Shown in pieces: positions 5,208-27,772 of a DNA stretch of 64,000 bases. Origin of the DNA: Dictyostelium discoideum. Taxonomy: Eukaryota. Numbering within the stretch: position 1 is the stretch's first letter; each line of letters starts with the position of its first letter. The position numbers and the translations under genes were made by a program. Below the pieces are notes generated by a model. That model saw only the letters and a list, made by a program, of their open reading frames with translations, was not told the DNA's origin and did not search any database. The stretch covers positions 5,184,001 through 5,248,000 of the forward strand of contig CM000151.3 of NCBI GenBank assembly GCA_000004695.1. Direction: 5' to 3'.

Positions 5208-5886
5208 TATAAAAAATGAAATTCCACCAATAATTGATATTGCAAATAATATTCAAGAAATTTATAAAGAAATTAAAAATTTATTACAATTTGATTCTGA
5301 TAAATTTATATATGTTTTAGAGAATCAATATGAAACAGTATCCCAAATTACTGGTGGTAATGATCAAATTATATTGGAAAAATTAAAATCAGCAGTACAA
5401 TTAAATGATAATAATGATAATAATAATAATAATAATAATGATAATAATAATAATAATGATAATAATAATGAAGCTGGTGATAATGACCACCAAAAATTAT
5501 CATTATTTTTATCAACTTTATATATTGAAGAAACAGTTTTAAAAAAAGAAAATCAAGTAATTTATAAAAATATATTTTTAGATAATTTAATAAATTGTTG
5601 TGAAGGTGATGATAATGAAGAGGATTTAAAATCAGAAACTACAACAACAACAACTACAACAATGGAAAAATTAAAAGAATCTAAAGAAATTGTAGATATC
5701 AACAAAGATAGTCAAACTGAAATTAATAATAATAATAATAATACTACCACTATTTCAGTAAATTTAGAAAACGAAATCTTACCAAATGGTTCATTAAATC
5801 ATTTGACACCCTATAAAATTAAAAATTATAATATAAAATTTTATAAAACTTCAGTTTTAGTTGTTTTATTAAATAAAAAAAAATAA
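4191..5886 (+). CDS. Hypothetical protein with poly-Ser, poly-Asn and poly-Thr tracts. The 3' exon is shown; the initiator exon is not resolved.
   Basis: The reading frame is open and coding-like from 4191 (..FDGYNKKFKIIEDLINNQFKINTLNKNFYCHGQVSSPISISIRDFGLLQIPCCSTQLKEIIERFKYRFTYKGVFEIPLDLITFDNDIW..) with no in-frame ATG before 4480. It is preceded by ttttttttgggaatag (AG 4189-4190), so an upstream mini-exon is inferred. The track ORF starts at TTG 4429. The stop is at 5884-5886. Weak jelly-roll/2OG-oxygenase-like motifs (LELYRLLIYNKDS..FGSHS ... GYRVTLLY) are only suggestive. Confidence 0.5.
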
Positions 5887-17033: not shown

Positions 17034-19064
17034 ATGTTAACGAATATAATAATTTTGATAATATTATATCTTTTTTATGATTTTGTAAGTTTTTAATTTA
17101 AAACATATAATTATTTAAAAATAAAATTGTTATTCCTTTAAAACTAATTTATAAATTTTTTTATTAAAAAAATTATATAAAGTGTTATAAAAATTTTAAA
17201 TATAGAAACTATGGATCCCCTTGGGCTTTACCGGTTATTGGTAAATTTTTTTTTTATTTTTTTTTTTTTTTTTTTATTTTTTTTTAATTAATATTTGTGA
17301 TAATATTTTTTTAATTTTATAAAAGGTCACTTTATTCATGTTATAAATCAACCACATTTAGTTGTACATAATGACCGAATGAAATATAATAATGGAAGAT
17401 TTGTAAATTATTGGTTTGGTGATTATTTATCAATTGCAATTACTGATCCAATACTATATAAAAAAATATATTTAAATTTTCCAAAACAAATAAATTCAAG
17501 ATTAAAATCCCCAACAGTATTAAATATTTCCGAAAGATTTAGAGGGATAATTTCATCAAATGAAAATAATTGGGATTTTCATCATGGGATTTTAAGTAAA
17601 TTATTTAATGGTCATAAAGCCAAAATTAATAATTTTTTATTTGAAAAAGAAACAAAATTTATTATTGAATATATGAAAAAAATTTCCAAATCTGGTGAAA
17701 ATGTAATTATAGCTCTATATATAAAACCTTAATTATTATAATCATTTTAAACCATGTTTTTTAAATTAACATATGTGTTTTTATTTTTATTTTTTTTTTT
17801 AAAAAAGTTTGACACTAGATCAAATTTTTTATATTTTTATTCAAATATTTTATTTGATTATATATTAGGTAAAAGAGTTGAAAACATTTATGAAAATGAA
17901 TTAAGAAAAGATAGAAAAAAATTTATGGTATCTATTCAAGAAGTAATGGATTCTGTTGGCCTTATAAAATTTTTAAATTATTTGATACTTTCATATCCAT
18001 TTCTTAGTATATATTTAAGATATTTCACATATACAACTTTTAATTTAAAAAAGATATTAAAACAATATTATGATGAACATTTAGAAACAATTGATTTAAA
18101 TAAACCAAGAGATGTTTTAGATAATTTAATTATGGAGTATAAAAATCAAAATGCTATAGAATGTGATAAATCATTTGTTGCAATTGCAATTGAATTACTT
18201 GCTGCTGGTACAGGTATAATTTTATATTTAAAAAAAATCTATAATGAATATTATTATAAATTATTATAATTTATTAATTTTTTAAATATTAATTTTTTAT
18301 TTAGATACAAATTCATCAACTAGTGAATGGTTTTTGACTTATTTAGTAAATAACCCTATATATCAAGATAAAATATATGATGAATTAATTGGTGCTTTGA
18401 AAATTAATAAACCATTAAAAGGTAGTGATGTTTTAATTAATTTATCACATAGACCATTGACTCCATTATTTAATGCAACATTAAAAGAAGTATTACGTCT
18501 TATTCCAGCAACACCTTTTTCTGTGCCAAGAATGTCAAATGAAGGATTTGAAGTTGATGGAATTAAAATTCCAAAAGGTGTATGTAATTTGTTTTTTTTA
18601 AAAAATCAACTATAACTCTAAACTGTTTATTTAATACAATTAATTTTTATATTTATTTCACATTTAGACATACTTATTTCCATCAATGTATTCAATTTTT
18701 AGAGATGAAAAGTATTGGGGTGAAAATGCAAATAAATTTTATCCAGAAAGATTTTTAACAGATTCACACTCAAACAATTACTTTCCTTATGGTGTTGGTA
18801 AAAGGATGTGTCTTGGTTCAAATTTTAGTCAACATGAATTATATATTTGTTTAACAAATATAGTATTAAATTTTAAAATAAAAAGTATTGATGGTAAACC
18901 ATTAAATGAAATACCAAGTAAGTATTACCTTTTTTATATATCTTTTGTAAAAATTGTTTAAACAACCAAATTAATATGATTATAATATTTTTTTAAAAAA
19001 TTAAAAAGATTATGGTATAACATTTAGACCAAACATTTTTGAAGTTAAATTAGAAAATCGTTAG
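17034..19064 (+). CDS. Cytochrome P450 monooxygenase, 7 exons. The proposed exons are 17034..17084 (uncertain), 17206..17240, 17326..17702, 17808..18213, 18305..18579, 18668..18917 and 19009..19064.
   Basis: Hallmarks seen are a signal-anchor MLTNIIILIILYLFYDF, ..NYGSPWALPVIGHFIHV.. (PGP-LPxIG hinge), the I-helix AIELLAAGT|DTNSSTSEW split by an intron, and the heme loop FPYGVGKRMCLGSNFSQHELY (FxxGxRxCxG). All internal junctions are phase-consistent, with donors GTAAAT/GTAATT/GTATAA/GTATGT/GTAAGT and pyrimidine-rich ..AG acceptors. The exon1/exon2 phase is inconsistent by 1 nt (see finding). Confidence 0.8.
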
Positions 19065-19375
19065 AATTAAATTTAATAAATTTTTTATACCTTTTGTTTT
19101 AATTATTATTTTATTTTATTTTATTTTATTTTATTCAAAGCACCAATTAAAAAAATAAAAATCATTTAGATTTCTATTTTGTTTTATTTTATTTTATTTT
19201 AAAATAAATAAACATAAAAATTATATTTAACTTATGTAGTGGAAATTTTTTTAATTTCACTTGTAAATAAAACCAATTTGGGTTAAACAACTTAGTTTTA
19301 TATTAAAAAACCTTTTTTAGATAATTTGTTTTTTTTTTTTTTTGAATGATTTGAGTTTGGAACATCTTGTTGATT

Positions 19376-20830: not shown

Positions 20831-22231
20831 ATGACAAGTAAAATAAAATCAAGTAATACACTTTTAACATTTGATGCAAATGAAGTGACCAATATTAAAT
20901 TAGTTTGGGATATTGAAGAATTAAAGAATAAGGATAAAGAAGATAAAGCACATATAAAAGATGAAGAAGAAGATGAAGATGGACCAGTATCATTTCATCC
21001 ATCATTTTCTCATCAAATATTTAATGATGAACAAGTTCAAGGATATGAAGCTTGTAAAATTGATATTTATATGGGAGCAGGTTCATTAACATCATATATT
21101 GATACAAATTATACTTTACAATCTAAAAATTTAACAAATGTTGAAGGTGAATTATTAAAAGTTTTTTCAAAACAAGACCCACCAATTTCAAAACAATCAT
21201 TTTATAAATTCATTGAAGAAAAAGAAAAATCATTTAAACCAATTGGTAAAAAGATACATGAATATACAATTACAGATAAAGAGAGTGGTGAAGAAACAGA
21301 GTATGAAGTTTATTTTGGCAGAATAACAGATCAAGCAGTATTTAGATACCATGAGAAACTTCAAATATTTGTATTATGGTATATCGATGGTTCTTCCTAT
21401 ATTTGGACAGATGATCCAAATTGGGATATATTTTTCATTTTTGAAAAGAGAATTATAGATGGTGAAAAGAGATATGGCATTACAGGTTATTCAACAATTT
21501 ATAATTTTTATCATCATCCAGAACAAACTAGAGCTAGAATTAGTCAATATTTAATTTTACCACCATACCAAAGAATGGGTCATGGTAAATATTTATTTAA
21601 TTCAATCCATCAATATTATAAAACCAATGATGGATTCTACGGACCAGTTTACGATGTCACCATTGAAGATCCAGCAGATGATTTTAATTTATTAAGAAAC
21701 TATGTCGATTTAAAGAATATTATCGATGAGAAATTATTTGATAATGTTATACTAGATTTAAATGCAAATAATAAATCAGTATTTGAAGAAATTAGAAAGA
21801 AATTATTAGTTCCCCATAAACAGTCAAAAGTTTGTTTAGAAATTTATTTATTTAGTAAATTTTTAGCAACACCAAATTCAAATCCAAAATATAAAGAATT
21901 TAGAATTGCAATTAAAAAGAGACTTTATAAACAAAATATTGGTGATTCTGAACAAATTGAAAAAATGAAACAACAAGTTGCGCAAGAGAATGAAGATAAT
22001 TTACGTCTTGAACAAGAGGAGTTACAGGAGTTACAAGATATTGAAAATAAAAAAAATGGTACAAATATTAAAGTCGCAATCAATACTAAAGAATTAACAA
22101 CACCTTCTGAACCTGAAAAAAGTAAAGAAGAAATTGAAAAAGATAGATTAGAAGAAATTATTCAACTTTATAAAGACTTGGAAGAAAATTATCATAAAAC
22201 TTTATCATCTTTAAATTTAATTACAAAATAA
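20831..22231 (+). CDS. hat1: Histone acetyltransferase type B catalytic subunit (HAT1), single exon, 466 aa.
   Basis: ..EVYFGRITDQAVFRYHEKLQIFVLWYIDGSSYIWTDDPNWDIFFIFEKRIIDGEKRYGITGYSTIYNFYHHPEQTRARISQYLILPPYQRMGHGKYLFNSIHQYY..YDVTIEDPADDFNLLRNYVDLKN matches the HAT1 N-terminal and GNAT core (the R/Q-x-x-G-x-G/A acetyl-CoA motif is MGHGK). Confidence 0.85.
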   Translation: MTSKIKSSNTLLTFDANEVTNIKLVWDIEELKNKDKEDKAHIKDEEEDEDGPVSFHPSFSHQIFNDEQVQGYEACKIDIYMGAGSLTSYIDTNYTLQSKNLTNVEGELLKVFSKQDPPISKQSFYKFIEEKEKSFKPIGKKIHEYTITDKESGEETEYEVYFGRITDQAVFRYHEKLQIFVLWYIDGSSYIWTDDPNWDIFFIFEKRIIDGEKRYGITGYSTIYNFYHHPEQTRARISQYLILPPYQRMGHGKYLFNSIHQYYKTNDGFYGPVYDVTIEDPADDFNLLRNYVDLKNIIDEKLFDNVILDLNANNKSVFEEIRKKLLVPHKQSKVCLEIYLFSKFLATPNSNPKYKEFRIAIKKRLYKQNIGDSEQIEKMKQQVAQENEDNLRLEQEELQELQDIENKKNGTNIKVAINTKELTTPSEPEKSKEEIEKDRLEEIIQLYKDLEENYHKTLSSLNLITK

Positions 22232-22471
22232 ATTTCAAAGTATATTTAATTAAAAAAAAAAAATTAAAAAAATAAAATAAAATATAAGAAATCAATAAAT
22301 AACTTAATAAATTATATTAAATTAAATGAAATGAATTTTTATTTATTTATTTATTTAATTAATTTATTTAATTATTTTAACTATTTATTTATTTATTTAT
22401 TTACAAATAATTATTTCATTTTGAAGATGAAAAATCATTGATTGTGATGATGATTTACCATTCTCGAAAGA

Positions 22472-25400
22472 TTAAGAGGAGAATGCGGAACTTTGTGCAG
22501 AGTTTGAATTTTTACTACCTGAGGAAGAAGATGAATCGTCATTTTCACTTGATTTTGATTGAGAATTACCACTCGATGATGACGAAGATTCAAAAGCAGA
22601 GCTTTGTTCTGATAAAGACGATGATTCACTTGACTCACTACTTTGATTCATTGATCCACTATTTGAAACTTGATCTTTGGATTCAGTTTCTGAACTTTGA
22701 TGACTGTTTGATTCACTTTCTTCTTTATGTGATGATTCATTGTTTGAATTTTGGTTGTTAGATTCGTTATTTGATGATTCATTATTTGAACCCTGGCTGC
22801 TTGATTCATTATTTGACGATTCATTATTTGAACCCTTGCTGCTAGATTCATTATTTGATGATTCATTGTTTGAATTTTGGTTGCTTGATTCATTGTTGGA
22901 TGATTCATTATTTGAACCTTGGCTACTTGATTCATTGTTTGAACCATGGCTACTTGATTCATTGTTTGAACCTTTGCTGCTTGATTCATTGTTTGAGCCA
23001 TGGCTACTTGATTCATTGTTTGAACCTTGGTTACTTGATTCATTATTTGATGATCCATTATTTGAACTTTGGCTACTTGATTCATTATTCGATGATTCAT
23101 TATTTGATGATTCATTGTTTGAACCTTGGCTACTTGATTCGTTATTCGATGATTCATTATTTGATTCATTATTTGATGATTCATTATTTGAACCTTGGTT
23201 GCTTGATTCATTATTTGAAGATTCATTATTTGAACCTTTACTACTTGATTCATTATTTGATGATTCATTATTTGATGATTCATTATTTGATGATTCATTA
23301 TTTGAACTTTGGTTGCTTGGCTCATTATGTGATGATTCATTGTTTGAACCTTGGCTACTTGATTCATTATTTGATGATTCATTGTTTGAACCTTGGTTGC
23401 TTGATTCATTATTTGAACCTTGGCTACTTGATTCATTATTTGATGATCCATTGTTTGAACTATAGTTGCTTGAATCTTGACTACTTGATTCATTATTTGA
23501 TGATTCATTATTTGAACCATGGCTACTTGATTCATTATTTGATGATTCACTGTTTGAACCATGACTGCTTGAGTCGTTGTTAGATTCGCTGTTCAAACTT
23601 TGATTGCTAGATTCATTGCTTGACTCACTATTTGAACCTTGACTTGGTTCATTGTTATATTCACTGTTCAAACTTTGGTTGCTAGATTCATTATTTGATG
23701 ATTCGCTATGTGATGATTCATTGTTTGAACCTTGGTTACTTGATTCATTATTTGATGACTCATTGTTTGATGATAGATTGTTTGAACTTTGATTGCTTGA
23801 CTCATTATTTGATGGCTCATTGTTTGAATTTTGGTTGTTAGAATCGTTATTTGATGATTCATTGTTTGAACCTTGGCTACTTGATTCATTATGTGATGAT
23901 TCATTGTTTGAACCTTGGTTGCTTGATTCGTTGTGTGCTGATTCATTGTTTGAACCTTGGCTGCTTGATTCATTATGTGATGATTCATTGTTTGAACCTT
24001 GGTTGCTTGTTTCATTATGTGAAGATTCATTGTTTGAACCTTGGTTGCTAGATTCATTATTTGATGATTCATTGTTTGAACCTTGGTTGCTTGATTCATT
24101 ATGTGAAGATTCATTGTTTGAACCTTGGTTGCTTGATTCATTATTTGATGATTCATTGTTTGAACCTTGGTTGCTTGATTCATTATGTGATGATTCATTG
24201 TTTGAACCTTGGTTGCTTGATTCGTTGTGTGCTGATTCATTGTTTGAACCTTGGCTGCTTGATTCATTATGTGATGATTCATTATTTGAACCTTGGTTGC
24301 TTGTTTCATTATGTGAAGATTCATTGTTTGAACCTTGGTTGCTAGATTCGTTATTTGAAGATTCATTGTTTGAACCTTGGCTGCTTGATTCATTATTTGT
24401 TGAACTATGGTCATCACTAGATTCATTATTTGAATTTTGGATTTTTAAAGTTTCACTTGAGCTATCTTGTCCACTACTAGAACCTTGGTTACTTGAATGG
24501 TTGTTTGAATGGCTACCGGAGCCTTGGTTACTAGAATCATTTGTTGGATGATTGCCCGAGCTTTGATGATTAGAATCTTCATTTGATTGACTATTGTTAG
24601 ATTCACTGCTTGATGTTTGACCACTTGAACTTTCACTATTATGGCTTGATGATTCTTCTGTTGGTGATTGAATGGGTGGTTGAGTTGGTGGAGAAGTTGG
24701 TTTTTTGGTGAGGGGTGGAGAAGTTGGTTTTGGAGTTGGTTTGTTAAATGGATTTGGGTTATGAACGAAAACATCATTTTGTAAGGTCATAGGACATGCT
24801 AAAATTGAACTCATGACAATATTGAAATTACAATTGTCATCAGTAGAATTGACACTAATTGATGTATATTGTGAATCTTTACAAAGTAAGGTTATTGTAG
24901 TTGATTTTGGTTTACCTGTTCCTTGACACAAATTATTTGATGAGCTACTTGTAATCACAGCGCCATATTGATCATCACTATCTAATGGATTAATGGTAGC
25001 ACTACCATAGTCACCAATAGTACCAATTAAAGAATTATCAGGTTTAATGCATGCAGTTTGACGTGGACAACAAGCTGGTGATGAACAAATGTTCCAATTA
25101 ATTGTTAAACCTTTTAGTACACTAGTATAATATGGATCACTATTTTAAAAAATTAAAAAAATAAAAAAATTAATAAATAATTATTATTATTATTTATATT
25201 ATTAATATTACCTTTTAAATCCTGTAAAATCATAGTTTAAACCATTAAGATTTGGTTTACAATAATATTTTGGAGTTTTTGGTTGTGGTGGTTTGTTAGT
25301 TGGACAAGCTGCTGAACCACTCATTAAAATGTTAAAAGTACAGTCATCAATACGTTCAACTCTTTCAACAGTTGGAGTTGGTTTAGAGGAACATTTTAAA

Positions 25401-25670
25401 TTGATACGAGATTGAATAAATTGTTTACCTCCATTACACTTCATTGTTGAACTTGTACTTGTAATTCTGGCACCAAAAGATGAATTACCCAATGATTCAA
25501 AGCCAACTGAATCAATACTACCAATGCTTGATCCATTTCTAAAGCAAACACTACTATCAATACATTTTGTTGGTGCACCACATACATTCCAATTAATATC
25601 AATACCATCTTTACTATATGAATAAAATGGTACTCTATTTTTTTTTTTTTTTTTTTTAATTAGTAATATA

Positions 25671-25701
<31 letters not shown>

Positions 25702-26492
25702 TAAATAATGAATAGTTACTTTTTAAAATCATTAAAATCATAATTATTTCCATCTAATTCAATTTGACAAGGATATTTATTTGGAAGTGTTGAGGATGGA
25801 CAAGCTGAATTACCAGAAACAATTATATTCATTGAACACAATCCATCTTGAATTACTCTTTCAACTGCATCAGAACCATTTCTGTTACAAAGCATTGTTA
25901 TATTTGTACGTCTGAATTCACCATTTAAACATTTTTGTTTTGAAAAAGTAATTATTGAACCACCAACACCGCCATTTGGTAAAGAGACAAAAGTTGAATT
26001 ATTTAAGTCTCCTAAATTAATAGATGTTTTTCCATAATTTTTACAAACATTTGTTGAGTTTGGACATTTTGGTGATACAGAACAAATTGAAAAATATAAT
26101 GAATAAGGAGTTAAATCATATTGAAAAGGACTATTTTTTATTATTTTATAATTTGTTATTTATTATTTGGGTTGAACGAAAAAAAAAAAAAAAAAAAAAA
26201 AATTAATTTCCAAAAAAAAAAAAAAAAAAAAAAAAAAATTAAATAAAATAAAATAATTTTAGAAAAATTTGGTTAAGTAAATTTAAAAGAACAAAATTTA
26301 ATTAAAGCCAAAATTAGGATTTTTTTTTTTTTTTTACCCAAAAATAACTTACTCTTTGAACTTACTGAAATCATAATCCAAACCATTTAAAGTAGCTTTA
26401 CAATTATCTGGATTTGTTTGGCCATTTGAAATTTGAAAAACTCCCAATATTAAGAAAATTGGAAATAAAAGATTTATAAATTTCATTTTCAT
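22472..26492 (-). CDS. Secreted or cell-surface protein. It has a signal peptide, three MRH-like (mannose-6-phosphate-receptor-homology) Cys domains and a ~700-aa Ser/Asn-rich mucin-like tandem-repeat tail. It has 4 exons (26353..26492, 25720..26130, 25212..25634, 22472..25139).
   Basis: Exon 1 begins MKMKFINLLFPIFLILGVFQISNGQ (signal peptide), then ..CKATLNGLDYDFSKFK. Each domain has the pattern Y.F.IC....C.....C...G......LG...(9-15 residues)..G..I.F....C..G..R.T.I...C..(10-17 residues)..C.....S..ACP followed by NYDFxxFK. All three introns sit in phase 2 right after that FK and use GTAAGT/GTAACT/GTAATA donors. The tail is about 80 copies of a 9-aa unit (ESSNQGSNN / ESSHNESSN..) encoded by 27-nt nucleotide repeats at 22500-24500. 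Confidence 0.7.
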
Positions 26493-27726: not shown

Positions 27727-27772
27727 CAAACAATTGAAAAAGAACAATAATAAATTAATAAAAAAAAAGGGA

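Follow-up and report, generated by a model that had tools for sequence, protein, structure and literature searches.

A four-exon Dictyostelium discoideum gene for a predicted secreted protein with three non-canonical MRH domains and a Ser/Asn/Glu repeat tail

The locus at 22472–26492 in a window of 64,000 nucleotides of Dictyostelium discoideum AX4 chromosome 2 (CM000151.3 of GCA_000004695.1, positions 5,184,001 to 5,248,000) is one functional four-exon gene on the minus strand. Its product combines a putative signal peptide, three MRH domains (named for homology to the mannose-6-phosphate receptor) and a long tail rich in Ser, Asn and Glu. With moderate confidence, we interpret it from its sequence as a secreted, soluble glycoprotein in which three non-canonical MRH domains would serve as binding modules and the tail as a disordered spacer. 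The gene belongs to a known domain family, in which it is an uncharacterised member of moderately unusual architecture. Several assemblies annotate it as a hypothetical protein, and our literature search found no paper characterising it.

Homology of the three domains to the MRH superfamily

The head of the protein comprises three Cys-rich domains of about 135 residues, which share 31–33% pairwise identity, carry 8, 8 and 9 Cys in register and recover one another by tblastn at E values of about 1e-25 to 1e-27. An earlier sequence-only reading of this DNA had described three paralogous Cys domains and assigned them to the fold of MRH domains and the repeats of CI-MPR (cation-independent receptor for mannose-6-phosphate). 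The values above confirm the paralogy, and the fold assignment is supported by sequence profiles and by the predicted fold.

Single sequences reach the superfamily only marginally. The whole head scored 22.4 bits against PRKCSH_1 (PF13015; gathering cutoff 23) and 21.0 bits against CIMR (PF00878; gathering cutoff 22.5), reaching neither cutoff, and single MRH domains scored lower or gave no hit. The Pfam check suggested by the sequence-only reading was thus borderline for single sequences, but the relationship became clear with profiles. Because the scores narrowly miss the cutoffs, the annotated orthologs carry no Pfam label. A phmmer search of the PDB sequences found CI-MPR at E=0.03–0.05, and a word-indexed search of 5.8 billion proteins with the 456-residue head returned no homologue. 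Weak Pfam matches to DAN and DarA_N (E 0.03–0.18) were discarded as noise.

A profile of the three domains matched CI-MPR in the PDB at E=2.5e-8 (6um1), with only CI-MPR chains at E≤0.0035 and the next non-MRH chain at E>1. The isolated CI-MPR domain 5 (2kva) was matched over its whole length at E=5e-4. A profile built from the three domain bodies as encoded in the exons, run exhaustively against 1.84 billion cluster representatives, yielded 88 proteins at E≤1e-3, the best at 3.1e-14; the profile search through the word index gave 3 matches only. All ten sampled matches carry CIMR, PRKCSH_1, ATG27 or Man-6-P_recep well over threshold. Those with names are CI-MPRs of metazoans and proteins called 'MRH domain-containing' from Heterostelium, Tieghemostelium and Mastigella.

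The Cys columns of the three domains align with those of 49 homologous domains and reproduce the MRH cysteine framework. AlphaFold2 modelling of MRH domain 2 with a 21-sequence alignment gave a mean predicted local distance difference test score (pLDDT) of 78.4, after an earlier run with a 3-sequence alignment (pLDDT 54.6) had been discarded. The predicted fold is the flattened β-barrel of MRH domains (about nine strands) and can be superimposed on solved ones. On the evidence of the profiles, the homology of the three domains to the MRH superfamily is established. The 64-kb window holds no further MRH copy.

Pocket residues and the nature of the ligand

In sugar-binding MRH domains, the side chains of Gln, Arg, Glu and Tyr hold a terminal mannose, and these residues are conserved and required for the site (PMC9388126). 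We read the corresponding columns from the alignment of the three domains with the 49 homologous domains. In the order Gln/Arg/Glu/Tyr, domain 1 has K77, R120, Q141-D142 (in Q-D-G-L before a Cys) and M147, domain 2 has F, I, R-I-D-D and F, and domain 3 has I, K, T-D-D-N and F. Each domain thus retains at most one of the four mannose contacts. Among the homologous domains, Gln is present in 25, Arg in 28, Glu in 33 and Tyr in 34, and all four occur together in 16, amoebozoan ones included. This assignment of positions is consistent with how HMMER aligns CI-MPR domain 5, and the spacing of 43 residues between K77 and R120 equals that between Gln91 and Arg134 in GNPTG.

The replacements are mostly hydrophobic or basic and are identical in five strains, with one exception. 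In GCA_054859205.1 (D. cf. discoideum), domain 2 has Tyr for Phe at the canonical Tyr position (CTYNIFM versus CTFNILM). Another strain has His for Arg near the domain 2 pocket; polymorphism at the pocket positions is minor.

With tetrads that read K/R/–/M, F/I/–/F and I/K/–/F, where 16 of the 49 homologues keep all four residues, the earlier description of a lectin-like, glycan-binding protein loses its footing, and a canonical mannose or mannose-6-phosphate (Man-6-P) binding mode is not supported by the pocket sequences. Nor does the MRH fold alone make a protein a lectin, since CI-MPR has 15 MRH domains, of which only four are carbohydrate-recognition domains and 11 are not (PMC7481795). 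By analogy with those non-sugar-binding domains, the three MRH domains could still act as binding modules. CI-MPR domain 11, which binds IGF2, is an example of such a domain. Judging from the pockets, the ligand is probably not mannose, and the head may recognise something other than a canonically bound terminal mannose or Man-6-P, either a protein or a different glycan epitope. The domain name alone is no ground for annotating the protein as a mannose or Man-6-P lectin.

As the main alternative, the protein could be a true P-type-like lectin with a modified pocket, acting as a multivalent soluble cross-linker or reader of mannose-type glycans, possibly of methylphosphomannose or sulphated mannose. 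D. discoideum N-glycans bear methylphosphate on terminal mannose (PMC11795075). Dictyostelium lysosomal enzymes carry methylphosphomannose, but an endogenous Man-6-P receptor is described as not having been detected (PMC2114169). A glycan reader would thus occupy an open niche, and any protein with CI-MPR-type repeats in Dictyostelium merits attention. Moreover, the MRH fold and homology are firm, domain 1 has an Arg at canonical spacing, and each of the three domains has an Asp next to where the canonical Glu would sit. However, Gln and Tyr are replaced in every domain (by K/F/I and M/F/F, respectively), Glu is absent at its canonical position, and the retention of at most one contact residue per domain contrasts with the complete tetrads of many homologues. 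The positive evidence is limited to the fold, which most CI-MPR domains share without recognising carbohydrate. We consider a lectin of this kind unlikely.

A bolder version of this idea holds that a dictyostelid lineage-specific family of secreted MRH proteins with remodelled pockets reads anionic N-glycans (methylphosphomannose and/or sulphated mannose), and that the three-domain protein with its polyanionic tail is a multivalent soluble reader or cross-linker. This is highly speculative and we give it little chance. If true, the three-domain protein would become a candidate partner, working apart from the classical receptor pathway, for the Dictyostelium 'Man-6-P-OMe' marker, whose endogenous recognition partner has long been missing.

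Repeat tail, topology and gene model

The tail consists of 38% Ser, 25% Asn and 12% Glu, with 1.7% Thr and 2.2% Pro, and is free of Cys. Its sole stretch with the Pro/Thr-rich composition typical of mucins is the linker of about 30 residues at 457–487, so that, in composition, the label 'mucin-like' given to the whole tail by the sequence-only reading suits the linker alone. The same reading had counted about 80 copies of a nine-residue unit in near-perfect 27-nt repeats. The core is in fact a mixture: its 78 Glu/Asp-initiated units comprise 35 of nine residues (ES[SN]xQGSNN type), 34 of five residues (ESS[NH]N) and 9 of other lengths. Tandem Repeats Finder (TRF) reports a dominant period of 42 nt (14 residues) with 89% matches at 23756–24403, whereas the 27-nt rows reach 65–66% matches only. 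The tail also contains a higher-order duplication of 294 nt, in which a 69-residue block recurs exactly 98 residues downstream and 110 nt are exact. Between 22648 and 24551, other frames on both strands hold open reading frames (ORFs) of 304, 252, 252, 242 and 241 residues with monotonous translations (MNHQIMNQ..., LLDSLFDDSLFEPW...); we rejected these as genes and regard them as by-products of the stop-free 42-nt repeat.

As the sequence-only reading had anticipated, the tail is length-polymorphic. It measures 757, 761, 853, 921 and 948 residues across strains, with heads of 453–456 residues, and every coding sequence (CDS) is a multiple of three in length. The composition is nearly constant in six assemblies (S 0.38–0.40, N 0.22–0.27, E 0.11–0.13), and both the Pro/Thr-rich linker and the C-terminal ...NSAQS(S/F)AFS(S/P) are kept among strains. 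The tail contains 82 N-x-S/T sequons, compared with 75.6 ± 5.8 in composition-preserving shuffles. The sequon count is thus a by-product of composition, and we discarded the idea of a specific enrichment of N-glycosylation sequons (NES) in the tail.

We propose that the tail would form an intrinsically disordered, acidic and heavily glycosylatable spacer or bulk domain of unconstrained exact length. In this role it may hold the triple-MRH head in a hydrated, extended state, either in the extracellular matrix or, after secretion, in the endo-lysosomal lumen. Another explanation is that the head alone is functional and the tail a neutral, microsatellite-like expansion, tolerated rather than used. 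Tail length indeed differs by almost 200 residues among close strains while head length is fixed, the repeats contain a recent higher-order duplication, and sequon density equals the compositional expectation. A dispensable tail should, however, show out-of-frame or stop-containing variants. Instead, the frame is open over 757–948 codons in all six assemblies at nearly constant composition, and the linker and the C-terminal end are conserved. We attach a rather low probability to a purely neutral tail.

Concerning topology, the N-terminus (MKMKFINLLFPIFLILGVFQISNG/Q, the slash marking the presumed cleavage site) looks like a signal peptide, with a Kyte-Doolittle peak of 1.98 over 19 residues; the cleavage site was placed by inspection according to the -3/-1 rule. 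The signal-peptide exon of the sequence-only reading is to this extent in agreement with the hydrophobicity profile. Outside the signal peptide there is no transmembrane segment, the 19-residue maximum of 1.35 falling on a β-strand of domain 3. The chain ends in ...NSAQSSAFSS. In all six sequences the C-terminus is hydrophilic, with neither a hydrophobic anchor nor an HDEL or H/KDEL motif. These features suggest a protein that is soluble in the secretory pathway and predicted to be secreted by default. They also speak against the cell-surface protein envisaged earlier: with no transmembrane segment or hydrophobic C-terminus, any surface attachment must be non-covalent.

A membrane trafficking receptor, be it the missing Dictyostelium Man-6-P receptor or a cargo receptor resembling Atg27 or CD-MPR, would fit the kinship to CI-MPR repeats, and the nearest dictyostelid relatives include a protein with ATG27 and Man-6-P_recep (P0073). 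We judge it very improbable. Lacking a membrane anchor, the protein is not a receptor; it has no cytosolic tail, no ATG27 or Man-6-P_recep match even at E≤10 and no sugar-contact tetrad, whereas P0073 of Polysphondylium violaceum has both a transmembrane segment and the canonical Gln/Arg/Glu/Tyr. No assembly annotates an alternative 3' exon encoding a transmembrane segment, and the sequence contradicts both the receptor and the Atg27 readings. Nor did the Pfam scan of the protein reveal any further domain, such as partner-binding modules of the endoplasmic reticulum (ER).

Several points weigh against a soluble protein with three non-canonical MRH binding modules and a spacer tail. The single-sequence Pfam scores stay below their gathering thresholds, and the structure model covers domain 2 only, without its first strand. 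An altered mode of sugar binding is conceivable, since Asp residues occur at a distance of one or two from the canonical Glu position and domain 1 keeps its Arg. Sequon density in the tail is what composition predicts and bears no sign of selection for glycosylation. Dictyostelium proteins very often contain long low-complexity tracts, which may lack a specific role. Finally, the proposed function is deduced from architecture alone.

The gene model underlying this interpretation was obtained by in silico splicing (Table 1). It reproduces the boundaries of the sequence-only reading exactly (ATG at 26492, end of the TAA at 22472, minus strand), together with its four exons and the GTAAGT, GTAACT and GTAATA introns at a shared phase-2 position. 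For each of the three introns the break falls between the second and third base of a codon, immediately behind (D/N)YDFxxFK. Every MRH domain thereby has its first strand in the preceding exon, and complete domains arise only after splicing. The raw ORF list at the locus shows an 828-residue Ser-rich ORF and fragments of 94, 59 and 47 residues only, in agreement with the earlier view of one giant ORF and a 94-residue fragment. The gene is therefore hidden from an ORF list; it is not hidden from annotation, since the four-exon model is already present in five public Dictyostelium assemblies.

GCA_054883475.1 annotates a 1211-residue gene at the same place, identical save for starting at Met3 and for an intron 1 that is shorter by three T. 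Four more D. discoideum or D. cf. discoideum assemblies have a gene of 1215, 1307, 1374 or 1402 residues in the same position downstream of HAT1. The splice rules from the AX4 model give every annotated product length exactly in the five assemblies. Six assemblies agree on the lengths of exons 2 and 3 (411 and 423 nt), while intron lengths differ among strains (159–226, 68–93 and 67–141 nt) in steps that are not multiples of 3; because of this combination we take the introns to be real. The CDS of AX4 and that of GCA_054883475.1 carry six additional bases, ATGAAA, at their 5' end (26487–26492; MKMKF...). The four other strains begin with MKF or MKL, and one annotation starts the AX4-type sequence at the second Met (Met3, 26486). 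The AX4 start codon is thus ambiguous by two residues.

Pairwise ratios of nonsynonymous to synonymous substitution rates (dN/dS) in the head are 0.24–0.36 for informative pairs, or about 0.27; a near-identical pair (dS 0.01) gave 0.62. Head amino-acid identity among strains is 88–98%, and 25 of 25 Cys are conserved in five strains. As judged from the low dN/dS and the conservation of every Cys, the head is under purifying selection and the gene is functional.

An exact look-up of the 1213- and 1211-residue products in a large protein collection gave no match, although the HAT1 neighbour from the same assemblies is present. Likewise, the exhaustive search of representatives (1.84e9) returned neither the protein itself nor any close ortholog. 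Since the annotated 1211-residue product is missing as well, the absence speaks of the database and not of the gene; proteins with low-complexity tails probably are dropped or clustered away. For such genes, a result of 'no homolog found' calls for caution. That the locus is an artefact, made of exons of separate genes or of a pseudogene, is scarcely credible: it could appeal to the product missing from the collection and to a model known here from genomic DNA, but five independent assembly annotations call a single gene of equal exon structure, the dN/dS, Cys and exon-length data and the completion of the domains by splicing oppose it, and the sequence contradicts a pseudogene.

Table 1. Features of the MRH gene and its product, in coordinates of the window
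Feature	Residues or length	Position	Strand	Description	Basis
CDS, whole gene	1213 aa	26492 (ATG) to 22472 (last base of TAA)	minus		in silico splicing
Start codon and predicted signal peptide	residues 1-24	26421..26492	minus	MKMKFINLLFPIFLILGVFQISNG/Q	N-terminal hydrophobicity and inspection
Exon 1	140 nt	26353..26492	minus	signal peptide and first strand of MRH domain 1 (C31...LDYDFSKFK)	in silico splicing; sister assemblies annotate an equal exon
Intron 1	222 nt	26131..26352	minus	GTAAGT...ATAG, phase 2, long poly-T tracts	in silico splicing
Exon 2	411 nt	25720..26130	minus	symmetric phase 2-2; MRH domain 1 body, short linker, domain 2 first strand	
Intron 2	85 nt	25635..25719	minus	GTAACT...ATAG, phase 2	in silico splicing
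Exon 3	423 nt	25212..25634	minus	symmetric phase 2-2; MRH domain 2 body, linker, domain 3 first strand	segment used for structure model
Intron 3	72 nt	25140..25211	minus	GTAATA...ATAG, phase 2	in silico splicing
Exon 4	2668 nt including stop	22472..25139	minus	MRH domain 3 body, Pro/Thr-rich linker, Ser/Asn/Glu tail, TAA	
MRH domain 1	residues 27-160	25791..26414	minus	spans intron 1	
MRH domain 2	residues 164-297	25295..25781	minus	spans intron 2	
MRH domain 3	residues 305-443	24785..25273	minus	9 Cys; spans intron 3	
Pro/Thr-rich linker	residues 457-487	24653..24745	minus	NKPTPKPTSPPLTKKPTSPPTQPPIQSPTEE; putative O-glycosylation	composition
Tandem-repeat core of tail	residues 571-1128	22730..24403	minus	78 units	TRF
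Non-repetitive Ser-rich acidic C-terminus	residues 1129-1213	22475..22729	minus	...NSAQSSAFSS; end motif kept in orthologs	

The neighbouring single-exon gene at 20831–22231 on the plus strand is DDB_G0275159, the catalytic subunit of a HAT1-type histone acetyltransferase type B (Hat1_N), identical to AX4. It is convergent with the MRH gene, and 240 nt separate the two stop codons. This intergenic region contains a (TTTA)n microsatellite of about 16 copies (22338–22403). By offset from a sister assembly, a cytochrome P450 of 490 residues lies upstream of HAT1 at about 17040–19070 (plus strand). On the other side, a gene of roughly 1630–1700 residues starts at 27754 (plus strand, by offset) and is divergent from the MRH gene across about 1.26 kb of AT-rich intergenic DNA.

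Two links to published genes were dropped. DDB_G0283243 is an MRH-domain protein already recognised in D. discoideum (PMC12954983); we rejected the present gene as the MRH protein of the htt- suppressor paper, which is DDB_G0283243 on chromosome 4. The unannotated DDB_G0275161, reduced 0.374-fold in lrrB- cells (PMC2906285), seemed by its number to be a neighbour of DDB_G0275159. The link is unproven and was left aside: dictyBase identifiers do not follow chromosomal position, as the window lacks the primer sequences for gpdA (DDB_G0275153).

Origin of the domains and comparison with known systems

The highest-scoring single-domain relative of the three-domain profile is CYY_001772 of P. violaceum (58.1 bits). 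It belongs to a tandem array of four genes of 163–166 residues, each encoding a signal peptide and one MRH domain (GCA_000277445.1, AJWJ01000044.1, 4098–7569 of the extracted locus). CYY_001771 and CYY_001772 are 56% identical, and the pockets are non-canonical. Three of the four array genes have a single phase-2 intron after ...F-(A/T), within an Asn codon; for the second gene (5211–5772) the splice search did not recover the annotated protein, so that the intron position is confirmed in three. These introns share an alignment column with the ...F-K/D introns of the D. discoideum gene (slashes mark the intron). Likewise, the only intron of the membrane-anchored P. violaceum CYY_009880, which has a canonical MRH domain, lies at ...YNFSGFG/N, in phase 2 and at the same position.

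Because single-domain MRH genes of P. violaceum, secreted and membrane-anchored alike, have the phase-2 intron at the same position, it is, on this comparison, ancestral to dictyostelid MRH genes. The three introns are then copies from internal duplication, and the exon shuffling suggested by the sequence-only reading is not needed. An ancestral unit of first strand, phase-2 intron and domain body would have undergone internal tandem duplication; fusion of tandem genes is an alternative route to three domains. The locus thus shows two ordinary processes in one gene, namely the multiplication of a domain with its ancestral intron and the rapid in-frame expansion and contraction of repeats between close strains.

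In two assemblies of Dictyostelium citrinum, no MRH ortholog was found within 8 kb of HAT1. In both, HAT1 contains intron sequence (about 1.7 kb for 469 residues) and is flanked by C2-domain and Kelch/β-propeller genes. Compared with D. discoideum, then, either synteny around HAT1 is broken in D. citrinum or the gene has been lost there.

Among known systems, the CI-MPR/IGF2 receptor (CIMR, PF00878) is metazoan and consists of 15 domains, a transmembrane segment and a cytosolic sorting tail. The present protein is amoebozoan, has three domains and lacks the transmembrane segment, the sorting tail and the Gln/Arg/Glu/Tyr tetrad, whereas it has an added Ser/Asn/Glu repeat tail of 750–950 residues. 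The MRH lectins of the ER and Golgi (OS-9/Yos9, XTP3-B/ERLEC1, glucosidase II beta and GNPTG; PRKCSH_1, PF13015) keep Gln/Arg/Glu/Tyr and bind mannose. They possess partner-binding or retention modules (HDEL, DMAP1-like, SEL1L binding); the present protein has none and ends in ...SAFSS.

With the type I membrane MRH proteins resembling Atg27 and CD-MPR, the present gene shares the superfamily, the ancestral phase-2 intron and the dictyostelid lineage. Those proteins have a single canonical domain, a Thr/Ser stalk, a transmembrane segment and a cytosolic tail, whereas the present protein has no transmembrane segment or ATG27 match. CYY_009880 of P. violaceum (1501–2581 of the extracted locus) is a type I membrane protein of 275 residues with Gln/Arg/Glu/Tyr, a Thr/Ser stalk, a transmembrane segment, a cytosolic tail and matches to ATG27 and Man-6-P_recep. 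A search for a Man-6-P-type receptor in dictyostelids would do better to begin with it than with the present gene.

Mucin-like and Ser-rich repeat proteins resemble the present protein in their Cys-free, length-polymorphic Ser-rich tail, globular head and Pro/Thr-rich linker. However, the tail described here, known from its sequence, is rich in Ser/Asn/Glu rather than Pro/Thr/Ser and is built of irregular five- and nine-residue units.

A close parallel is the P. violaceum array, in which CYY_001771, CYY_001772 and their two neighbours also have a signal peptide and a non-canonical pocket and lack a transmembrane segment. Unlike the D. discoideum gene, they encode one domain each in four tandem genes, have no low-complexity tail and are not syntenic with it. 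Together, the three-domain gene of D. discoideum and the four-gene array of P. violaceum delineate a dictyostelid group of putatively secreted, non-canonical MRH proteins.

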